Origin: Candidatus Woesearchaeota archaeon
GTDB taxonomy: Archaea > Nanobdellota > Nanobdellia > SCGC-AAA011-G17 > GW2011-AR18
Length of the DNA: 64,000 bases
Reading direction: 5' to 3'
Assembly (NCBI GenBank): GCA_018302545.1
Contig: JAGVZM010000002.1
Location: 2,198 to 66,197, forward strand
Both the position numbers and the translations under genes were made by a program. Below the pieces are notes generated by a model. It was not told where the DNA came from. It did not search any database and was given only the letters and a program-made list of their open reading frames with translations. This document shows positions 14,142 to 62,604 of this stretch, in pieces (position 1 is the stretch's first letter; each line of letters begins with the position of its first letter).

Positions 14142-15557
14142 ATGAAAGTAATAGCTAGAGAGATAATCCAAAATAAAATATTATATGATTTAATATACAA
14201 AGAAAAGTATGACTTTAAAACAAAATTAAAGATTTTTTTGGGTAATCGTCCTTTCATTACAATATTAAAAAAACAAAGAGAAAGAAATAAACTTTATGAA
14301 GGAGAATTAGTTGTAGTAAGGATTAATAAAGAAAATAGAATATACGAATTCATAACAAAAATTAGGGAATGGGGAAAAATAAATATCCCCATTAAAATAA
14401 TTAAAGATTTATCAATAAAAAACAAAGAAAAATTAAAGATAGAATTAATTAAAAATAAAGAATTTAAAAACATAAACAGAGAAAACACTATAAATCTAAC
14501 GAACATAATAAGGTTTAATAAGAAGTTAGAGATTATAAATAGAAATGAAAAGTATATAACAATTTACAAAACAAGTTGTATACCAATTACAATTCCTAGA
14601 ATAATAAAGATAAATGAAGATTTGATAGAAGCAATTTATTTACTGCATGGAGATGGACATTATCAAAAAAAATTATATTTTTCAAACAAGAATTATGATC
14701 TACATAAATTTATAATAAACACTTTCAATAAACAATTATTTATTCCTAAAAAACTATGGAGATATAGAATTAACCACAATAAAAGAGAATTAATAGATAA
14801 AGCAAAAAATTTTTGGATAGAAAATTTAAAGGCAAATAAAAAGAGATTTTATGAAACAAGAAAATTAAGCAGTTTTAATACAGTAAAATATGGAAACTTA
14901 AGATCAATAATAGATAATACAATAGTTTCAGAAATATTCAATTATTTAATTCATAAAATCAAAATAGATAAAGAAAGACTAAGTTTAATTGCTTTAAATG
15001 GAATACTCTCAGCAGAGGGGAATGCTCAAATAGATAAAAAAGGTTTGCACAAAATAACAATTGCATATAACGAAGACGAGAAACAAATGTTCATTAATTT
15101 ATTAATAAAATCAAACCTAAAGAATTTCAAAATAGAACAGAATAAAAGGTTTTGTATTAGAAAATGGGAGCACCAATACAAATTCATCAAAAAATTTCTT
15201 TCAAATAATCTTATACCCTTCAATAAACATAGTGAGAGAAGATTAAACCTTATAATAGGTTTTCTAAATCATTCATACACAAGATCTGCAATAAAATATC
15301 TAGAGATATTAAAACAAGGAAAGAGTTATGAAGAGATAGCAAAAACATTAAATCATAGAAAGGATTCAGTTTTAGAGTTACTCAAAAAAGATAGATATAA
15401 AAAGTTTACTAAGAAAACAATTTCAGGTAAGATTAAGATAAATAAGAGAGGTAAAGAGTTTATAGAAATAACAGAAAAATTAAAAAACATGTTAAAAGAA
15501 ACAGAAAAAGAATATTTAGAGTACATAAAACCAATAAACAAATTCAAGGAGGAGTAA
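14142..15557 (+). CDS. Free-standing LAGLIDADG-like (double-motif) homing-endonuclease-like protein
   Basis: 471 aa, extremely K/N/I-rich. Two LAGLIDADG-like motifs: AIYLLHGDGHY and LIALNGILSAEGNA (good match to L.G(L/I)(I/L).(A)EG), about 125 aa apart. The assignment is tentative. Confidence 0.4.
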   Translation: MKVIAREIIQNKILYDLIYKEKYDFKTKLKIFLGNRPFITILKKQRERNKLYEGELVVVRINKENRIYEFITKIREWGKINIPIKIIKDLSIKNKEKLKIELIKNKEFKNINRENTINLTNIIRFNKKLEIINRNEKYITIYKTSCIPITIPRIIKINEDLIEAIYLLHGDGHYQKKLYFSNKNYDLHKFIINTFNKQLFIPKKLWRYRINHNKRELIDKAKNFWIENLKANKKRFYETRKLSSFNTVKYGNLRSIIDNTIVSEIFNYLIHKIKIDKERLSLIALNGILSAEGNAQIDKKGLHKITIAYNEDEKQMFINLLIKSNLKNFKIEQNKRFCIRKWEHQYKFIKKFLSNNLIPFNKHSERRLNLIIGFLNHSYTRSAIKYLEILKQGKSYEEIAKTLNHRKDSVLELLKKDRYKKFTKKTISGKIKINKRGKEFIEITEKLKNMLKETEKEYLEYIKPINKFKEE

Positions 15558-16562
15558 ATGAAATTACCGTTTGAAGAAGAAAATAGAAAAATTTTAGTGA
15601 AGAAAGAAGCTTCCACAGATCCCAAATTTGGGAAAAAACCAGAAGAACGAACAGTAAGAGAACTGTTAGAGTCTTCGGTAATATGTTTAAACAAAGTAGA
15701 AGGTCCTTCTTCACACCAAGTAGCAGACTATGCAAAAAAAGCTCTAGAAGTAGAAAAAATCGGTCACGGCGGGACACTTGGAATCTTTTAAGATTAGTGA
15801 AATCCTGCAGTAACTGGGGTTCTACCTATATCTATAGGAAAAGCTACAAGAATAATGGAGGCTCTTCTAAAATCAGGAAAAGAATATATTTGTTTAATGC
15901 ACATACATACTAAAGTTCAACAATCAAAGATACACAAAGTAGCTAAACAATTCTTAGGAAAAATAACCCAAATGCCTCCTGTAAAGTCTGCAATTAAAAG
16001 ACAATTAAGACAAAGAGAAATTTATTACTTAGAAATCCTAGAAATAAAAGATCAAGATGTACTTTTCAAAGTAGGATGTCAAGCAGGAACCTACATAAGA
16101 ACACTCTGTGTTGGATTTGGAAAAGAATTAGGAACCAATGCGCACATGCAGCAATTGATAAGAACAAAGGCAGGACCATTTAATGACAAAGAATGGTATT
16201 CTCTACAAGACATAAAAGACGCATATCAATTATACAGAGAAGAAAAAGAAGAACAATTAAAGAAAATTCTAAAACCAATAGAGTTTGCCATACAACATTT
16301 ACCTAAAGTATGGGTAAATGATAATACTATAGATTCAATATGCCATGGCGCATCATTAAAAGTCCCAGGAATAATAAAAGTCCATTCAAAGATAGAAAAA
16401 GAAGAATTAGTAGCTATAATGACTTTAAAAGAAGAATTAGTTGCTTTAGGAACATCAAAGATGAATTCAGAAGAAATGATAAAAAATCAAAAAGGATTAG
16501 CAATAAAAACAACAAAAGTCTTTATGGATCGAAATACATACCCTAATTTTAAAAAAGCTTAA
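15558..16562 (+). CDS. cbf5: tRNA pseudouridine synthase B / dyskerin-like Cbf5, interrupted by a 21-nt putative mRNA (BHB) intron
   Basis: The N-terminal ORF (15558..15791) ends ...KIGHGGTL-GIF*. The same frame continues after TAA/TAG/TGA stops with NPAVTGVLPISIGKATR...AGTYIRTLC... (15801 onward). Removing 15781..15801 joins exon 15558..15780 to 15802..16562 and gives GHGGTLDPAVTGVLP with the catalytic Asp restored. Confidence 0.8.
15781..15801 (+). other. Putative 21-nt BHB-type intron within cbf5 mRNA (gaatcttttaagattagtgaa)
   Basis: Carries TAA, TAG and TGA in the cbf5 reading frame within 12 nt. Precise excision restores the TruB-family TLDP catalytic motif. Contains the AATCTT/AAGATT inverted repeat. 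Boundaries are ambiguous by 1 nt. Confidence 0.65.
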
Positions 16563-16586: not shown

Positions 16587-16808
16587 ATGACAAAATGTAA
16601 ATATGAATATCAACAAATAGGATACATTAATTGCAATTATAATGGAGAATGTCCATATAAAAAATTAAATGAAGGAATTAGATGGGAATTAGATGAACTA
16701 GGTCCTACCTGTGAAAGACCTAAAGACCTAGAACCCCCAAAATTAGTAGATCTCCCAAATAAAAATAGAAGGCTAGAAACAATATTAGAATTTCTTCACC
16801 TAGTATAA
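16587..16808 (+). CDS. Hypothetical small Cys-containing protein
   Basis: 73-aa ORF with four Cys (CKYEY...CNYNGECPY...CERP). Weak support. Confidence 0.25.
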   Translation: MTKCKYEYQQIGYINCNYNGECPYKKLNEGIRWELDELGPTCERPKDLEPPKLVDLPNKNRRLETILEFLHLV

Positions 16809-21942: not shown

Positions 21943-23814
21943 ATGACAAATCCAGAAAATCAACTAATAGACCAAAGATTACAAAAATTAGAAGAAATAA
22001 GAAAGTTAGGAATAGAGCCATATCCCTATTCATACAAAACAAATACTACAGCAAAAGAAATTAAAGAAAAGTTCTCAAAATTAAAGAATGAAGAAAAAAC
22101 TAAAGCTAAAGTATCCCTCTCTGGAAGATTAATGACTATTAGGAGAATGGGTAAAGCATCTTTTGCTCACTTACAAGATCACACAGACAAGGTACAATTC
22201 TACATAAGAGAAGATGAAGTAGGAAACTCTGAATATGAAATATTTAAAAAATTAGATATGGGCGACATTATAGGAATAGAAGGAATAATATTCAAAACAA
22301 AGACAGGAGAAGTTTCTATATGGATAAAAAAATTAACTTTCTTATCTAAGTGCCTACGTCCCTTACCAGAAAAATGGCATGGATTAAAAGATGTAGAAGC
22401 AAGATACAGACAAAGATATCTAGACTTAATAGCAAATCCAGAAGTAAAGGAAATATTCATAAAAAGATCTAAAATAGTATCTGCTGTAAGAGAATTTTTA
22501 GAGATGAAAGGTTATATTGAAGTAGACATTCCAACTTTACAACCTCAATATGGGGGAGCAAATGCAAAACCATTCAAAACCCATATTAATGCTTGGAATA
22601 TAGATCTATATTTGAGTATTTCACCAGAGTTATATTTAAAAAAATTAATAGTTGGAGGATTTGATAAGGTCTTTACTATTTGTAAAAATTTTAGGAATGA
22701 AGGGGTTGACAAAACGCATAATCCAGAATTCACAATGATGGAGTGTTATGCAATAAATGAAGACTATAATTATTTATTAGAATTAATCGAAGATTTATAC
22801 ATATATGCAGCTGAAAAAGTTTTAGGAACAACAAAGATAACTTATCAAGGACAGAAAATTGATTTGAAAAAACCATGGAAAAGACTAACAATGTATGAAT
22901 CACTAAAACAATATGCTAATTTAGATGTCTCAAAAATGTCAGATAAAGAATTAATAAAACAAGCAAACTCACATGGGGTTCAAATAGAGAAAAATACACC
23001 AAGAGGATTAATAATTGAAGCATTATTTGGAGAACTAGTAGAAAAACATCTTATTCAGCCCACTCACCTAATAGATCATCCAAAAGAGACAACACCACTA
23101 TGCAAAGTAAAAAGGGGAGATGAATGTCTAATCGAAAGAGTCGAACCTTATATTAATGGATGGGAAATTGGAAATGGTTATTCTGAATTAAACGATCCAA
23201 AGATACAATATGAATTATTCAAAGAACAAGAAGAAAGAGGAAGAGCGGGAAATGAGGAATTCCATCCAATGGACGAAGATTATGTTAAAGCTTTAGAAAC
23301 AGGTTTACCTCCAACAGCAGGAGTTGGCTTAGGAATTGATAGAATGGTAATGTTACTAACAGATTCCACTACAATAAGAGATGTAATATTATTCCCTACA
23401 ATGCGTCCAGAAAATAAAGATGAGGAAAAAATAACAAAAGAAAATATTTTAGAACAAGAAGGAATAATAGTTGGCAAAGTAGTAAAAATAGAGAAACACC
23501 CAAATGCAGATAATTTAAAAATATGTACTATAAACATAGGAAATAAAGAGGTAATTTCTGTAACAAACTGTAAAAATGCAAGAGAAGGAATGATAATTCC
23601 AACAATATTAACAGGAACAAAATATTTTGATTGGAAAGGTTCAGGAAAAATATTAGTAGCAAAAAGATCAGAGTTAAGAGGAATAGAAAGCAACGCTATT
23701 ATGGGCGCTGGAGAAGAAATAGGATTGCCAACTCCAGAAGACAAAAGAGAATTAATATATGAACTAAAATCCGGAAAACCAGGAGACAAAGTAAAAGATC
23801 ATATACATAGATAA
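21943..23814 (+). CDS. lysS: Lysine--tRNA ligase, class II, with C-terminal Trbp111/EMAPII-like tRNA-binding domain
   Basis: Class II motifs FRNEGVDKTHNPEFTMMECY (motif 2) and GLGIDRMVMLLTDSTTIRDVILFP (motif 3). N-terminal OB anticodon-binding domain. About 120 extra C-terminal residues (GKVVKIEKHPNADNLKICTINIG...) resemble the tRNA_bind OB domain. Confidence 0.85.
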   Translation: MTNPENQLIDQRLQKLEEIRKLGIEPYPYSYKTNTTAKEIKEKFSKLKNEEKTKAKVSLSGRLMTIRRMGKASFAHLQDHTDKVQFYIREDEVGNSEYEIFKKLDMGDIIGIEGIIFKTKTGEVSIWIKKLTFLSKCLRPLPEKWHGLKDVEARYRQRYLDLIANPEVKEIFIKRSKIVSAVREFLEMKGYIEVDIPTLQPQYGGANAKPFKTHINAWNIDLYLSISPELYLKKLIVGGFDKVFTICKNFRNEGVDKTHNPEFTMMECYAINEDYNYLLELIEDLYIYAAEKVLGTTKITYQGQKIDLKKPWKRLTMYESLKQYANLDVSKMSDKELIKQANSHGVQIEKNTPRGLIIEALFGELVEKHLIQPTHLIDHPKETTPLCKVKRGDECLIERVEPYINGWEIGNGYSELNDPKIQYELFKEQEERGRAGNEEFHPMDEDYVKALETGLPPTAGVGLGIDRMVMLLTDSTTIRDVILFPTMRPENKDEEKITKENILEQEGIIVGKVVKIEKHPNADNLKICTINIGNKEVISVTNCKNAREGMIIPTILTGTKYFDWKGSGKILVAKRSELRGIESNAIMGAGEEIGLPTPEDKRELIYELKSGKPGDKVKDHIHR

Positions 23815-32089: not shown

Positions 32090-33397
32090 TTAATGACGGT
32101 TTGATTTCTTCTTAACATTACTAGAAGCCATTTTAAGCATTTTTAAAGCATAATTAACAGGATTCTTGCATTTACTACAAATACCGTCATCACATTTAAT
32201 GCTCATAGTTTTATAATAACTAGGGTTATCACAATTAGGAGGCAAAACCAATTTCTTCTGCCTTTTAAACCAACTTATCTGAGCCTTAACATAACCTTCT
32301 CTTAAAGGTTCAGCATTTCTTTTATTCCACTCAAGCATAAACTTCTCTATATCTTCTAGATTCCAACCAACATTTTGTAAAAAGTTAACTAAAATAAAAA
32401 TGCCTCTCTTCCTTCCATCTTCCTCTACGCCTTGCATTAATTTTAAAATACAAGGAGGAAAATAATCAACCTTTATTGGAACCTTAGGAGCCTCAAACTT
32501 TCTAGTAATTGTTATTTGTTTCTCTTCAATATAATTAGTTTTTCTAGCCCAATCAAAAGCTTGTATCAACAAATTTTTAGCTTCATCCTTTTCAACATTC
32601 TCTGAATCTAAAAATTTCAATCCAAATTTGACATTATCTATCTTTGCCTGTCTAATGTCAAAATCCTTAATAGTCTTCAAAGGTATACTAACTAACCCAG
32701 ATTTTTCATTTATACTATAAGCACATCTAAACAAATGTCTACTAGATATTAAAACACTATCGATATCTACTAACTTAAAAGGATCCAATTTATTCTCTTT
32801 AATAACATCTTCAACTTTTTTTCCAACACTCTTAGCAGCATCTTCTACTGTATGAGTCTCTAAAATCTTAGCACTTAAATGTTCTTTAATCATATTCTTA
32901 AGATATTCAGAAATAACTCTCACACCATCAGGAAAATAATCTTTTATATTAACATTATTAACATTAGAAGGGAAAGCTTCAAAAGGAATACCAATATGGA
33001 ATCCACGATTACCTGAATATTTTATAGAAAAATTCTTAACATCATTAAACCTTAAAGCATCTTCTAAAAATTCAGCGCACATAATACTAAAGTTTAAATT
33101 TTTACTATCCAAATCCAAGATACAACTCCAACCAATCCTTAAGTTATCTAATTCTTTCTTACTCAAACCACTTTCAAGCATCATAGGATCTTTCCAAATT
33201 TCCTCACTAACATGAAAAGAAGTCATACCTTGTTTAACTAAATCATTAATATCTCCCTGAAAATTAACAATCTCTGGTCTTTTTCCCCTAATATCTCCAA
33301 ACCAAGCCTGAACCTCTCTATTTTGAGATAGTCTCATCAATTCTTTTTGAACTTCGTTTTGAGAATAATACTCTTTTATTTTTTTAAGATCAGACAT
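32090..33397 (-). CDS. priS: DNA primase catalytic subunit PriS with Cys-rich C-terminal extension (possibly fused PriL-CTD-like module)
   Basis: ILDLDS (DxD metal-binding) and YSGNRGFHIGIPFEAFP (SGxRGxH) primase motifs. C-terminal approximately 100 aa carry Cys in PPCILK, PNCDNP and KCDDGICSKCKNP. Confidence 0.65.
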   Translation of the reverse strand: MSDLKKIKEYYSQNEVQKELMRLSQNREVQAWFGDIRGKRPEIVNFQGDINDLVKQGMTSFHVSEEIWKDPMMLESGLSKKELDNLRIGWSCILDLDSKNLNFSIMCAEFLEDALRFNDVKNFSIKYSGNRGFHIGIPFEAFPSNVNNVNIKDYFPDGVRVISEYLKNMIKEHLSAKILETHTVEDAAKSVGKKVEDVIKENKLDPFKLVDIDSVLISSRHLFRCAYSINEKSGLVSIPLKTIKDFDIRQAKIDNVKFGLKFLDSENVEKDEAKNLLIQAFDWARKTNYIEEKQITITRKFEAPKVPIKVDYFPPCILKLMQGVEEDGRKRGIFILVNFLQNVGWNLEDIEKFMLEWNKRNAEPLREGYVKAQISWFKRQKKLVLPPNCDNPSYYKTMSIKCDDGICSKCKNPVNYALKMLKMASSNVKKKSNRH

Positions 33398-55337: not shown

Positions 55338-57527
55338 ATGATAAAAAACAACAAACAGATAGAAGAAGGAACTTTTAAATATCTAGAACTATCAAAGAAA
55401 AAAATGAAGAAAAAGTTTTATATCACAACACCAATTTACTATGTAAATGATAAACCTCATGTTGGTCATGCATATACTACAATAATAGCAGATATTCTAG
55501 CAAGGTGGCATAGATTAAAACAAGAAGATGTATTTTTCCTAACTGGATTAGATGAAAACGGACAAAAAACAGTCGAAGCTTCTATAAAGTTCGGATTTAA
55601 AAGTCCACAAGCATGGTGTGATTATATAGCAGAAGAATATCTAAAAACATGGAAAAATCTAAACATAAGCAATGATGATTTTATAAGAACAACAGAAGAA
55701 AGACACCATAAACTTTCTATAGAGTTCACAAAAAAAGTTCAAAAAAAAGGAGACATCTATAAAGGAAACTATATAGGATTATATTGTGAAGGTTGTGAAG
55801 CATACATAACAGAATCAGAATTAACAAAAGAAGGTTTTTGTCCAAATCACAATAAAAAACCAAAGGAGTTACATGAAGAAAATTACTTTTTCAAATTAAG
55901 TAAATATGATAAACAATTACTAGAACATATAGAGAATAATCCAAGTTTCATACAACCCGAGTTCAGGAAAAAAGAAATTATTAATTTCATAAAGCAAGGA
56001 TTAAAAGATATAAGTATCTCTAGGCAGAGTTTAACATGGGGAATTCCTTTTCCTGGAGATGAATCTCAAAGAATTTATGTTTGGTTTGATGCATTATTAA
56101 ATTATTTGCACCCAAAGGAATATTGGCCTGCAAATATACAAATGATGGGTAAAGAAATAATAAAATTTCATTGTATAATCTGGCCGGCAATGCTTCTCTC
56201 AGCCGGATATAAACTTCCAAAAAAAGTATTTGCTCATGGATGGTTAACAATAAATGGAGAAAAGATGTCTAAATCTTTAGGCAATGCTATAGACCCAAAT
56301 CACCTTACTAAAACATTTGGAACAGATGCATTAAGATACTATTATGCAAGAGAAGTACCTTTAGGAAATGATGGAGATTTTTCAGAAAAACAATTAGTAG
56401 CTAGATTAAACAATGAGCTAGCAAATGAACTAGGCAACTTAATTTCAAGAACCTTAACTTTAATAGAAAAAAAATTAAATTCAGAAATAAAAAAAGATAA
56501 GGTAGATAAAACATTATTCAAAGATTTAAAGGTTAAACAAATCGACAAGTTCATCCAAGATATAGAACCCCATAATGCAATTGCATTAATTTTTCATTTT
56601 ATACATTCATGTAATCAATATATTAGCGAAAAAGAGCCATGGAACATCAATAAAGAAAATGAATTAAATAAAATACTCTATAATTTAACAGATGCTATTA
56701 GAATAATATCAATATTGCTCTATTCATTTCTACCAGAAACATGTGAAAAGATTCATAAACAATTATCTTTAGACACTAAAAAATTAAGTTTAGCTCAGGC
56801 TATTCCTGGAATATTAACAACAACAAAAATAAACAAAGGAGAAATTTTATTCCAAAAAGTAATTTTCAAAGAAACAAAAGATGTTTTCAAAAATCCTAAA
56901 TGTTATGTAACTCCAGAAGTGCAAAGATTAGGAATTAAAGTTAAATTTGCAGAATTAATCAACCTAAATATAAAAAAGAAACATATGGGTTTAGAAAAAT
57001 TAAAATCTGAAATAAAGAAAAGTTTCAAACCGAACATAAGAGTACTAAAAGGATATGATAATTACTCTAGATTATTAAACATAGAAGAAGGACAATGCTC
57101 AGTCTACAATTTAATGGATTTAGTTGAAGAAAACGGAAAACTTCCAACAATAAATACAGCTGTAGATAGTTATAATATTATATCTCTTGCTAAAAGCCTT
57201 GTTGTAGGTGCTCATGATAGAGAACATGTAAAGGGACCAGTGAGGTTTGATATTTTTAAAGGAAATGAATTATACATCCCATTATTCACAAATGAAAAAA
57301 AATCAGTTAATAAAGGAGAATTTGGTTGTATTGATGATGAAAAAGTTCTTTGTAGACTAGATATTAAACAAGGCGATCAAACAAAGGTGACAGAAAAAAC
57401 AAAGAATATTATTCTTTATGTACAAGGAAATGAATATACTTCAGAAGAATATTTGCAGGAAGCAATAGAAGAAATTTGTAAGTTAATGATTAGATTTTGT
57501 GATGGAGAATATAAAATATTAAATTAA
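55338..57527 (+). CDS. metG: Methionine--tRNA ligase with C-terminal B3/4-like domain
   Basis: HIGH-type TPIYYVNDKPHVGHAYT and KMSKSLGN motifs. Zinc knuckle (CEGCEAY...CPNH). C-terminal approximately 200 aa contain PTINTAVDSYNIISLAKSLVVGAHD...VRFDIFKG, resembling the B3/4 tRNA-binding/editing domain. GGAGG SD-like sequence 8 nt upstream. Confidence 0.85.
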   Translation: MIKNNKQIEEGTFKYLELSKKKMKKKFYITTPIYYVNDKPHVGHAYTTIIADILARWHRLKQEDVFFLTGLDENGQKTVEASIKFGFKSPQAWCDYIAEEYLKTWKNLNISNDDFIRTTEERHHKLSIEFTKKVQKKGDIYKGNYIGLYCEGCEAYITESELTKEGFCPNHNKKPKELHEENYFFKLSKYDKQLLEHIENNPSFIQPEFRKKEIINFIKQGLKDISISRQSLTWGIPFPGDESQRIYVWFDALLNYLHPKEYWPANIQMMGKEIIKFHCIIWPAMLLSAGYKLPKKVFAHGWLTINGEKMSKSLGNAIDPNHLTKTFGTDALRYYYAREVPLGNDGDFSEKQLVARLNNELANELGNLISRTLTLIEKKLNSEIKKDKVDKTLFKDLKVKQIDKFIQDIEPHNAIALIFHFIHSCNQYISEKEPWNINKENELNKILYNLTDAIRIISILLYSFLPETCEKIHKQLSLDTKKLSLAQAIPGILTTTKINKGEILFQKVIFKETKDVFKNPKCYVTPEVQRLGIKVKFAELINLNIKKKHMGLEKLKSEIKKSFKPNIRVLKGYDNYSRLLNIEEGQCSVYNLMDLVEENGKLPTINTAVDSYNIISLAKSLVVGAHDREHVKGPVRFDIFKGNELYIPLFTNEKKSVNKGEFGCIDDEKVLCRLDIKQGDQTKVTEKTKNIILYVQGNEYTSEEYLQEAIEEICKLMIRFCDGEYKILN

Positions 57528-59494: not shown

Positions 59495-60214
59495 ATGGAA
59501 TATCAAAGCTTAAACTATTTAGGATTAAATGAAAAAGAAAAAGAAGTTTATATTTTACTTTTAAAACTAGGAACTAGTAGAGCAAGTAATTTATTACAAA
59601 AAATAAATATCAATAGAAGTGTTCTTTACTCTATATTAAATTCCTTAGAAAATAAAGGATTTATAACAAAAATAATAAAACAAAATCTAACTTATTTTAA
59701 TCCAATAAATCCAAATTTATTATTAAAAAAATACAAAGAAAATGAAAAAATTTTAGAAAAAGAAATAAAAAAATTAACTGAAATTTCTAGTATAAAAATA
59801 GAAAAACCAAAAATACAAATTTTATCTGGACATAATGGAATATTAACTCTTATGCAAGATATTATAGATTCAAAAGAAGAAAATTTAGTAATAGGAGAAG
59901 AAAAGCATTATCATCAAATAGTAGAAATCTATTCAAAACAATTTTTAACAACAATAGAAGAATTAGATTTAAAAGAAAGAGTACTTGTAACTCATGGTCT
60001 TAAAACTTCTCCAAATACTAAAAATTCTGAGAAAAGATATTTACCAAAAGGATATGAATTTTCTTCTTCAGTAGGGATTTATGGAAATAAAGTAGTAATT
60101 GCTTTTTGGAAAGATCCTTTAACATTTCTTTGGATTGAAGATAAAGATTTAGCAGAGAGTTATAAAAATATTTTTGAGATTCTTTGGAAAATAAGAAAAA
60201 AAAGAATTAATTAA
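59495..60214 (+). CDS. TrmB-family transcriptional regulator-like
   Basis: N-terminal wHTH (LGLNEKEKEVYILLLKLGTSRASNLLQKININRSVLYSILNSLENKGFI) with a C-terminal sensor-like domain. Confidence 0.55.
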   Translation: MEYQSLNYLGLNEKEKEVYILLLKLGTSRASNLLQKININRSVLYSILNSLENKGFITKIIKQNLTYFNPINPNLLLKKYKENEKILEKEIKKLTEISSIKIEKPKIQILSGHNGILTLMQDIIDSKEENLVIGEEKHYHQIVEIYSKQFLTTIEELDLKERVLVTHGLKTSPNTKNSEKRYLPKGYEFSSSVGIYGNKVVIAFWKDPLTFLWIEDKDLAESYKNIFEILWKIRKKRIN

Positions 60215-62373: not shown

Positions 62374-62455
62374 TTAACTAATTAAAGAAAAAAGATTTAA
62401 AAGCTATATTTGAATTTTTCCGAAAATATTTCAGAAAAGTTGTGAAGAACATAAA

Positions 62456-62580
62456 CGCCCTAGGCGGGACTCGAACCTGCGACCCCTTGATCTCTGCTCA
62501 GTAAGTAACAGTTTCACAGTCGTTATGTAGAACACAAGTGCTCTACCTGTTGCTCCCTAATAGGTCTGAGCTACTAGGGC
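62456..62580 (-). tRNA. Intron-containing tRNA gene (about 125 nt precursor; isotype unresolved, possibly Arg)
   Basis: Minus strand: acceptor GCCCTAG/CTAGGGC. TA, then GCTC D-stem start. T arm GCAGG-TTCGAGT-CCCGC (one A.C mismatch). About 50 nt of extra sequence in the D-loop and anticodon regions. Multiple GCTC/GAGC and AACAG/CTGTT complementarities allow several intron models. Confidence 0.5.
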
Positions 62581-62604
62581 GTCTAAGAATTAGGCAACTA
62601 AAAT

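Follow-up and report, generated by a model that had tools for sequence, protein, structure and literature searches.

Canonical archaeal tRNA introns lie at position 37/38 and fold into a bulge-helix-bulge (BHB) structure of 3-4-3 geometry; they were reportedly described by Marck and Grosjean in 2003. In the stress-regulated splicing of HAC1 and XBP1, the endonuclease IRE1 acts together with an RtcB or Trl1 ligase, and the XBP1 intron is 26 nucleotides (nt) long. The cbf5 gene of crenarchaea (Aeropyrum, Sulfolobus) carries a BHB intron on which Watanabe in 2002 and Yoshinari in 2006 are also said to have reported. This intron, of 16-44 base pairs (bp), was found only in Desulfurococcales and Sulfolobales, and a single gain in their ancestor was inferred (Yokobori 2009, PMC2738675). 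Most of the crenarchaeal cbf5 motifs were described as unconventional or relaxed and as dependent on a heterotetrameric form of the tRNA splicing endonuclease EndA, which was stated, for cbf5, to cut between the second and third bulge base (PMC2738675). One further mRNA, HVO_1309 of Haloferax volcanii, has a BHB intron in its 5' untranslated region (Schwarz 2020, PMC7714728). The same 2020 paper names the cbf5 intron "in crenarchaeota" as the only additional BHB intron reported (PMC7714728), and both it and a 2023 review confine the cbf5 intron to a small crenarchaeal group. Protein-coding BHB introns have thus far been treated as a near-unique curiosity. Here, we analyzed a cbf5 gene that is interrupted by 21 nt in a 64,000-nt stretch of archaeal DNA (contig JAGVZM010000002.1, hereafter the window), and we put the probability that this insert is an archaeal BHB intron within the cbf5 coding sequence at roughly 90%.

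A preliminary description of this DNA had proposed that the cbf5 frame is continuous except for a 21-nt segment with TAA, TAG and TGA in frame, and that removal of the segment restores the catalytic aspartate. Reading the frame bore out the first point. From the ATG at 15558 it runs through IGHGGTL into GIF-stop-D-stop-stop (TAA 15789-91, TAG 15795-97, TGA 15798-800) and continues with NPAVTGVLPIS to the next stop, which is the terminal TAA. The TAA of the upstream open reading frame (ORF; 15555-15557) directly adjoins the cbf5 ATG, and the window as a whole has 29% guanine plus cytosine (GC). For the second point, we examined all deletions of 12-39 nt with a start at 15760-15800. Only one of them, removal of 15781..15801 (GAATCTTTTAAGATTAGTGAA, 21 nt), yielded GHGGTLDPAVTG, and neighboring registers placed N, G, Y or other residues where the catalytic D belongs. 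The predicted junction in the spliced mRNA is GGCGGGACACTTG joined to ATCCTGCAGTAAC. Translated across this junction, the in-silico spliced Cbf5 has 327 amino acids, the DKCLD, TruB_N, TruB_C_2 and PUA domains and, in the spliced translation only, the catalytic motif GHxGTLDP. Exon 1 encodes DKCLD and the start of TruB_N; exon 2 encodes the rest of TruB_N, TruB_C_2 and PUA. Alignment of the spliced protein with Cbf5 orthologs had been put forward as a check, and against Pyrococcus furiosus Cbf5 (3lwo; E = 2.6e-104) the alignment was gap-free across the junction. Features and coordinates are collected in Table 1.

Table 1. Features of the interrupted cbf5 gene (window positions) and lengths of the inserts found at the same codon in relatives. 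A slash within a bulge marks the predicted cut.
Feature	Position	Strand	Remarks
Shine-Dalgarno-like GGAGG	15548..15552	+	5 nt before the cbf5 ATG; direct sequence reading
cbf5 gene	15558..16562	+	open apart from 15781..15801; stop TAA 16560-62
cbf5 exon 1	15558..15780	+	codons 1-74 and first base (G) of the catalytic Asp codon; ends ...GGC GGG ACA CTT G
Putative BHB intron, 21 nt, GAAUCUUUUAAGAUUAGUGAA	15781..15801	+	unique restoring deletion, fold, motif-scanner match, 21-nt gap in relatives
cbf5 exon 2	15802..16562	+	last two bases (AT) of the Asp codon through codon 327, and TAA
Outer helix h, 5' strand GCGGGA	15769..15774	+	exonic, Gly-Gly-Thr codon bases; pairs with 15803-15808
Central helix H, 5' strand CACU	15775..15778	+	exonic, Thr bases 2-3 and Leu bases 1-2; pairs with 15796-15799
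5' bulge UG/G	15779..15781	+	predicted cut after second bulge base, between 15780 and 15781
Inner helix h' AAUCU with AGAUU	15782-86 with 15791-95	+	wholly intronic; fold
Loop UUUA closed by h'	15787-90	+	fold
Central helix H, 3' strand AGUG	15796..15799	+	intronic; fold and covariation
3' bulge AA/A	15800..15802	+	predicted cut between 15801 and 15802; fold
Outer helix h, 3' strand UCCUGC	15803..15808	+	exonic: Asp base 3, Pro codon, Ala bases 1-2
L070			Asp-codon insert 26 nt
L049			Asp-codon insert 21 nt
L013			Asp-codon insert 15 nt
L024			Asp-codon insert 21 nt
L060			Asp-codon insert 15 nt

The preliminary description had also suggested folding the region to look for a BHB with 3-nt bulges at both junctions. 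Such a motif was present in the unconstrained minimum-energy fold of 15755-15830 (-21.5 kcal/mol, z = -2.9 relative to shuffles). It has the strict arrangement hBHBh', for which flanking helices of 2 bp or more are required, with an outer helix h of 6 bp, a central helix H of 4 bp, an inner helix h' of 5 bp and two 3-nt bulges on opposite strands. Cuts placed by the published cleavage rule (15780/15781 and 15801/15802) are exactly both junctions required by the protein. A motif scanner returned the same element (15775, 15781, 15801; 21 nt; h = 6, h' = 5). Equally strong motifs occurred about 6.6 times per 64-kb strand in composition-preserving shuffles, over 4.5 million combinations of start and length, and the chance that one falls on the only combination that fits is about 1.5e-6. 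The motif is a canonical hBHBh', the consensus EndA substrate. The suggestion that the locus would indicate an EndA of relaxed specificity did not hold: because the motif is canonical, no such enzyme is needed or implied. A permissive scan of the window for weak BHB motifs joining two ORFs, aimed at further spliced genes, proved uninformative: the matches mostly linked neighboring genes across intergenic spacers, and only the cbf5 match united strong helices with a junction inside a gene. The strict scanner gave about 75 strong matches on the minus strand of the window and 10 on the plus strand, compared with about 7 in shuffles; the excess on the minus strand is probably an artefact of G:U pairing on a T/G-rich strand and does not represent real motifs.

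The earlier statement that cbf5 BHB introns are established for Crenarchaeota agrees with the literature. The site proved to be exactly the crenarchaeal one: as there, the insert lies after base 1 of the catalytic Asp codon of the same gene, falls in the same size class (21 nt here, 16-44 there), has no ORF and has its predicted BHB cut after the second bulge base. This likeness is to the published description, and any similarity of intron sequence would mostly reflect complementarity to conserved exon bases. The two differ in host, which here is a woesearchaeon of the DPANN archaea and not a member of the Desulfurococcales or Sulfolobales, and in motif, which is strict in the window and relaxed in most crenarchaeal cases. 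They also differ in that splicing was demonstrated experimentally in crenarchaea, whereas in the window it is predicted. The 3-4-3 geometry, flanking helices and cleavage rule are those of canonical archaeal tRNA introns, and the predicted spliced product, a helix closing a 7-nt loop, resembles a tRNA anticodon arm. Unlike a tRNA intron, however, this one would lie in an mRNA reading frame with no tRNA body, and ten helix bases on its 5' side and six on its 3' side belong to protein-constrained codons. As with HVO_1309, the locus offers an mRNA of a non-crenarchaeal archaeon that would be a substrate of the tRNA splicing endonuclease. The HVO_1309 intron sits in an untranslated leader. The cbf5 insert splits a codon, and unless it is removed the active site is not encoded. 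By analogy only, HAC1 and XBP1 offer a parallel in a very short coding-region intron, a protein endonuclease, a tRNA-type ligase and altered translation, but endonuclease and recognition structure differ and no homology is implied.

The closest Cbf5 proteins (72-73% identity), which are full-length and uninterrupted, and the closest genome loci belong to Candidatus Woesearchaeota / Nanoarchaeia, DPANN lineages placed by NCBI in the kingdom Nanobdellati; lineage names, here and below, were taken from the nearest named proteins only. The claim that the locus extends the published, crenarchaeal range to a DPANN-like genome is supported. The window also encodes archaeal ribosomal proteins and aRF1. 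We then compared 80 loci from species-representative genomes, 58 of them Woesearchaeota/Nanoarchaeia-like, that were collected by tblastn and are therefore free of structural bias. Five of the 58 were interrupted at residue 75 by inserts different from that of the window (Table 1). All five inserts separate the G of the Asp codon from its AT, and all hold in-frame stops or shift the frame. Each forms a central helix with its own exon bases (L070, CUCU:AGAG; L049, CUUU:GAAG; L013, CCUU:GAGG; L024, CAUU:AAUG; L060, CUCU:AGAG; window, CACU:AGUG). Where the Thr and Leu codons differ at silent sites, the intron has thus changed to match, and the central helix is retained. In five of the six genes identified by protein homology alone, the 3' bulge is AA/A. 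Aligned to intron-less sister genes (L004-L007), the window insert corresponds to a clean 21-nt gap. In a rough neighbor-joining tree of this single protein, the six intron-bearing genes were scattered through one woesearchaeal clade, each beside intron-less neighbors.

A larger set came from metagenome contigs, which we scanned with the pattern GGGACNYTNG N{8,38} AAATCCNNNNGTNACNGG, built from the junctions. The pattern leaves the intron strand of the central helix free, and the resulting set is biased toward GGG and AA/A junctions. At least 120 stretches matched, and 116 of the 120 listed were cbf5 genes split in the Asp codon; the figures that follow are for these listed matches. Their introns, with 109 distinct sequences, are 11-39 nt long, and multiples of three are not favored among them (43, 31 and 42 with remainders of 0, 1 and 2). 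Translation was blocked in 116 of 116 inserts, and all four central pairs were formed in 115 of the 116. The strict hBHBh' was present in 92 of the 109 distinct introns; in the shortest AT-rich ones, of which the smallest is 11 nt, h' was reduced to one pair or none. When collapsed to 65 distinct junction sequences, 99.6% of central-helix cells were paired. One position was occupied by CG (36), UA (23), AU (3), UG (2) and GC (1) pairs and another by CG (39), UA (24) and UG (2), and at two pairs both sides had changed in 27 and 24 of the 65 rows. The observed covariation was reached in 0 of 500 shuffles, and all slid registers scored far lower. To judge from these sequences, the central helix is clearly maintained by compensatory change in the relatives. 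Two other candidates were discarded: an apparent second split in one gene (L123) consisted of two N bases, and the single match of the pattern among viral contigs was unrelated.

Grouped by GC content and identity, most of the 116 listed split genes were Bathyarchaeota or Brockarchaeota-like. About 18-30 of them were AT-rich and Woesearchaeota-like: some 18 loci matched the window at 50-64% identity, and contigs below 41% GC held 32 distinct introns. One member of the AT-rich group, L181, has a 21-nt intron, AAATCTAATTAGGTTAGTGAA, that is homologous to that of the window and keeps the inner helix h' through a U:A to U:G change. The 19 exon bases upstream are identical between the two (19/19), synonymous sites included, whereas amino-acid identity is only 64%. 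A larger group had 40-54% GC, and a representative was 77% identical to Cbf5 proteins named Candidatus Bathyarchaeota. A third group had 13-nt introns, and its proteins matched sequences named Thermoproteota or Brockarchaeota-like. In one such Thermoproteota/Brockarchaeota-like lineage (L132), the close Cbf5 relatives in the protein collection (P0241-P0254) are almost all C-terminal fragments of 236-260 amino acids, some of them named Cbf5 by NCBI, which points to an intron that is near-universal in the lineage and mis-annotated as a shorter gene.

We also asked what the exon and intron sequences reveal about selection. The outer-helix Gly codon, which pairs with the Pro codon, was GGG in 5 of 6 intron-bearing DPANN genes and in 8 of 53 intron-less ones (Fisher p = 0.0014). 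On this comparison of sequences, synonymous sites in the exons appear to be constrained for pairing. Among the listed matches (L085-L204), 97 of the 109 distinct introns had an in-frame stop, with 20 and 24 for the other two frames and 32 +/- 4.6 (maximum 47) in shuffled introns, an enrichment that shared intron ancestry could inflate. The stop was mostly at the second or third codon past the junction, and it was present in all 42 of the multiple-of-three introns. These data suggest selection against translating an insert-bearing Cbf5 with a disrupted active site from unspliced mRNA. The in-frame stop may also make Cbf5 output depend on splicing capacity.

Our model for the expression of the gene is as follows. 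In the pre-mRNA, the exon bases for G-G-T-L would pair with those for D-P-A to form the outer helix, and four exon bases would pair with four near the 3' end of the intron to form the central 4-bp helix. A 5-bp hairpin within the intron would close the other side and leave two 3-nt bulges on opposite strands. EndA would then cut after the second base of each bulge, and an RtcB-type ligase would join the exons, so that the catalytic Asp gains its GAU codon and the mRNA encodes a normal Cbf5 of 327 amino acids. Unspliced mRNA would give only a 77-amino-acid N-terminal fragment. Exon bases of the invariant GGTLDPA codons make up 16 of the 20 bases in helices h and H, so an insertion need add no more than four bases of complementarity, two in the bulges and a short loop. 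A BHB supplied largely by the exons may explain why the site has been retained for very long or hit repeatedly.

The BHB motif and its exact register, together with conservation and covariation, were observed directly in this analysis, whereas the action of EndA and a ligase, and splicing in this organism, are proposed by analogy with the cbf5 intron that was studied experimentally in crenarchaea. Several points weigh against reading the insert as a spliced intron. A collection of 5.8 billion proteins contained no full-length protein of the spliced type that was identical to that of the window. Neither EndA nor RtcB was found among the 47 scanned window ORFs of at least 150 amino acids, although the window is a 64-kb part of a genome and this carries little weight. 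The metagenome pattern itself fixes part of the outer helix and the AA/A bulge, which leaves the central helix and the outermost pairs as the independent tests. Many of the metagenomic introns are mutually related, so sequence counts overstate independent events. Finally, the stop enrichment could partly mirror a structural preference for U-A-A/G bases in the loop.

Against these points stand the difficulties of every other explanation that we considered. The one that fares best, at very low probability, is that a 21-bp insertion inactivated cbf5 and that its function was lost or is provided by another copy. Reduced DPANN genomes do lose genes, the insert holds three in-frame stops, and gene callers report ORFs of 77 and 235 amino acids in every assembly. 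Yet in a genome of 29% GC neither half is damaged elsewhere over the 327 codons, and all Cbf5 domains and motif residues are retained. Different inserts, each complementary to its own exon bases, occur at the identical phase in more than 120 lineages, and exon synonymous sites are constrained for pairing; random decay would not yield such a pattern. The same two ORFs, called in public assemblies, could instead be taken as a split or truncated gene that is expressed without splicing, the 77-amino-acid N-terminal peptide and the 235-amino-acid C-terminal protein (ATG 15855) functioning jointly or separately, and related C-terminal fragments are indeed named Cbf5 in public annotation. We consider this slightly less credible again: between them, the pieces would be missing the catalytic Asp together with residues 75-99 (DPAVTGVLPISIGKATRI...) of the TruB_N core, and covariation of the BHB would have no role.

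Bypass or read-through of the 21 nt by ribosomes, akin to the hopping on phage T4 gene 60, is a still more remote prospect. The insert is short, starts near a stop codon and contains a hairpin, but its likeness to a bypass element is superficial. The GAU Asp codon arises only once the 21 nt are gone, no pair of take-off and landing codons would give L-D-P, and read-through would have to pass three stops. In the relatives, 73 of the 116 listed inserts are not multiples of three, and the feature that is conserved is the BHB and not a take-off/landing pair. The least plausible explanation is an error of assembly or sequencing, for which nothing speaks beyond the metagenome-like, AT-rich nature of the window. 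The preliminary description had judged a sequencing error unlikely, and the insert is not an artefact, because identical sequence is present in three other assemblies from separate runs (Logan SRR2090155, ENA ERZ27254754 and ENA ERZ27254845). In these the insert-bearing cbf5 DNA matches at 100% identity over the gene; one of the three has a single base different from the window, elsewhere. The homologous but diverged intron in L181 argues in the same direction.

A BHB intron that recreates the catalytic Asp codon is therefore the reading we adopt, as originally proposed, with support from structure, from the agreement of junctions and cleavage rule, from covariation and from the literature. 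What is new is a known kind of intron in a new phylum, with a canonical rather than a relaxed motif. Our full-text literature searches, which covered the subscription literature incompletely, turned up no published cbf5 intron from DPANN, Bathyarchaeota or any other group outside the crenarchaea, and the DPANN intron is probably unreported before. Both the single-gain account and the tie to enzymes of relaxed specificity are weakened by the same intron at the same codon phase with a canonical motif in DPANN, and likewise by its presence in more than 100 uncultivated lineages. Such genes are now called as fragments, and 252-amino-acid "Cbf5" proteins stand in public annotation; when DPANN and Thermoproteota genomes are assessed by marker genes or for completeness, fragmentary calls of this kind distort the estimates. 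In addition, the site is a compact natural test case for the co-evolution of exon coding constraint and RNA structure.

A broader interpretation joins these observations with a second intron found in some relatives. Three woesearchaeal cbf5 genes that also carry the Asp-codon intron have another BHB intron after base 2 of the T/S codon of GP[TS]SH. It measures 19 nt in L049 (2647-2665), 13 nt in L142 and 20 nt in L157, with central helices UCCC:GGGA, GCCU:GGGC and UCCU:AGGA, respectively. No second intron position in cbf5 is described in the literature that we consulted. We advance the combined picture tentatively, as a possibility with the odds against it: the Asp-codon intron might be no peculiarity of the crenarchaeal lineage but either of ancient origin or gained again several times in phyla far removed from one another (DPANN Woesearchaeota, Bathyarchaeota, Brockarchaeota-like Thermoproteota and Sulfolobales/Desulfurococcales), and might persist because the invariant GGTLDP codons supply most of the BHB. 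The conserved stop could then act as a fail-safe, or as a switch for regulation, through which Cbf5 synthesis depends on EndA/RtcB activity. With the second BHB intron at GP[TS]SH in some Woesearchaeota, cbf5 would be the first archaeal protein gene known to contain several introns.

Several other features of the window were recorded. The genome had been said to carry multi-intron tRNAs. This was not confirmed in the window, where ARAGORN with default settings and Rfam gave one intron-less tRNA-Ile. In its intron mode, ARAGORN added a doubtful tRNA-Ser(tga) at 62455-62581(-), 127 nt long with a 28-nt intron. This call has a good acceptor stem of 7-8 bp and imperfect arms, the Rfam tRNA model does not reach it, and the motif scanner detected no BHB at its stated borders. 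A tRNA interrupted by at least one non-canonical intron is one possible reading of the segment.

Directly upstream of the cbf5 ATG lies an ORF of 471 amino acids (14142-15557, +), and a related ORF precedes cbf5 in L126. We considered it as a homing endonuclease and set the idea aside, since it had no credible Pfam or PDB match and only a weak one to PilZNR; by eye, LHGDGHY and LNGILSAEGNA resemble LAGLIDADG motifs, as candidates only. Just 3' of cbf5 is a Cys-rich ORF of 73 amino acids (16587-16808, +) that is called in all assemblies and has no Pfam match and no resemblance to Nop10. A weak CRISPR-repeat match at 59819-59847 was rejected, there being no repeat array at that place. Two aminoacyl-tRNA synthetases have unusual C-terminal fusions: the methionyl-tRNA synthetase (55338-57527, +) to a B3_4 domain and a class II synthetase of the Asp/Asn/Lys type (21943-23814, +) to a tRNA_bind domain. 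The DNA primase is likewise fused, with a single ORF of 435 amino acids (32090-33397, -) matching both the small and the large subunit as PriS-PriL.

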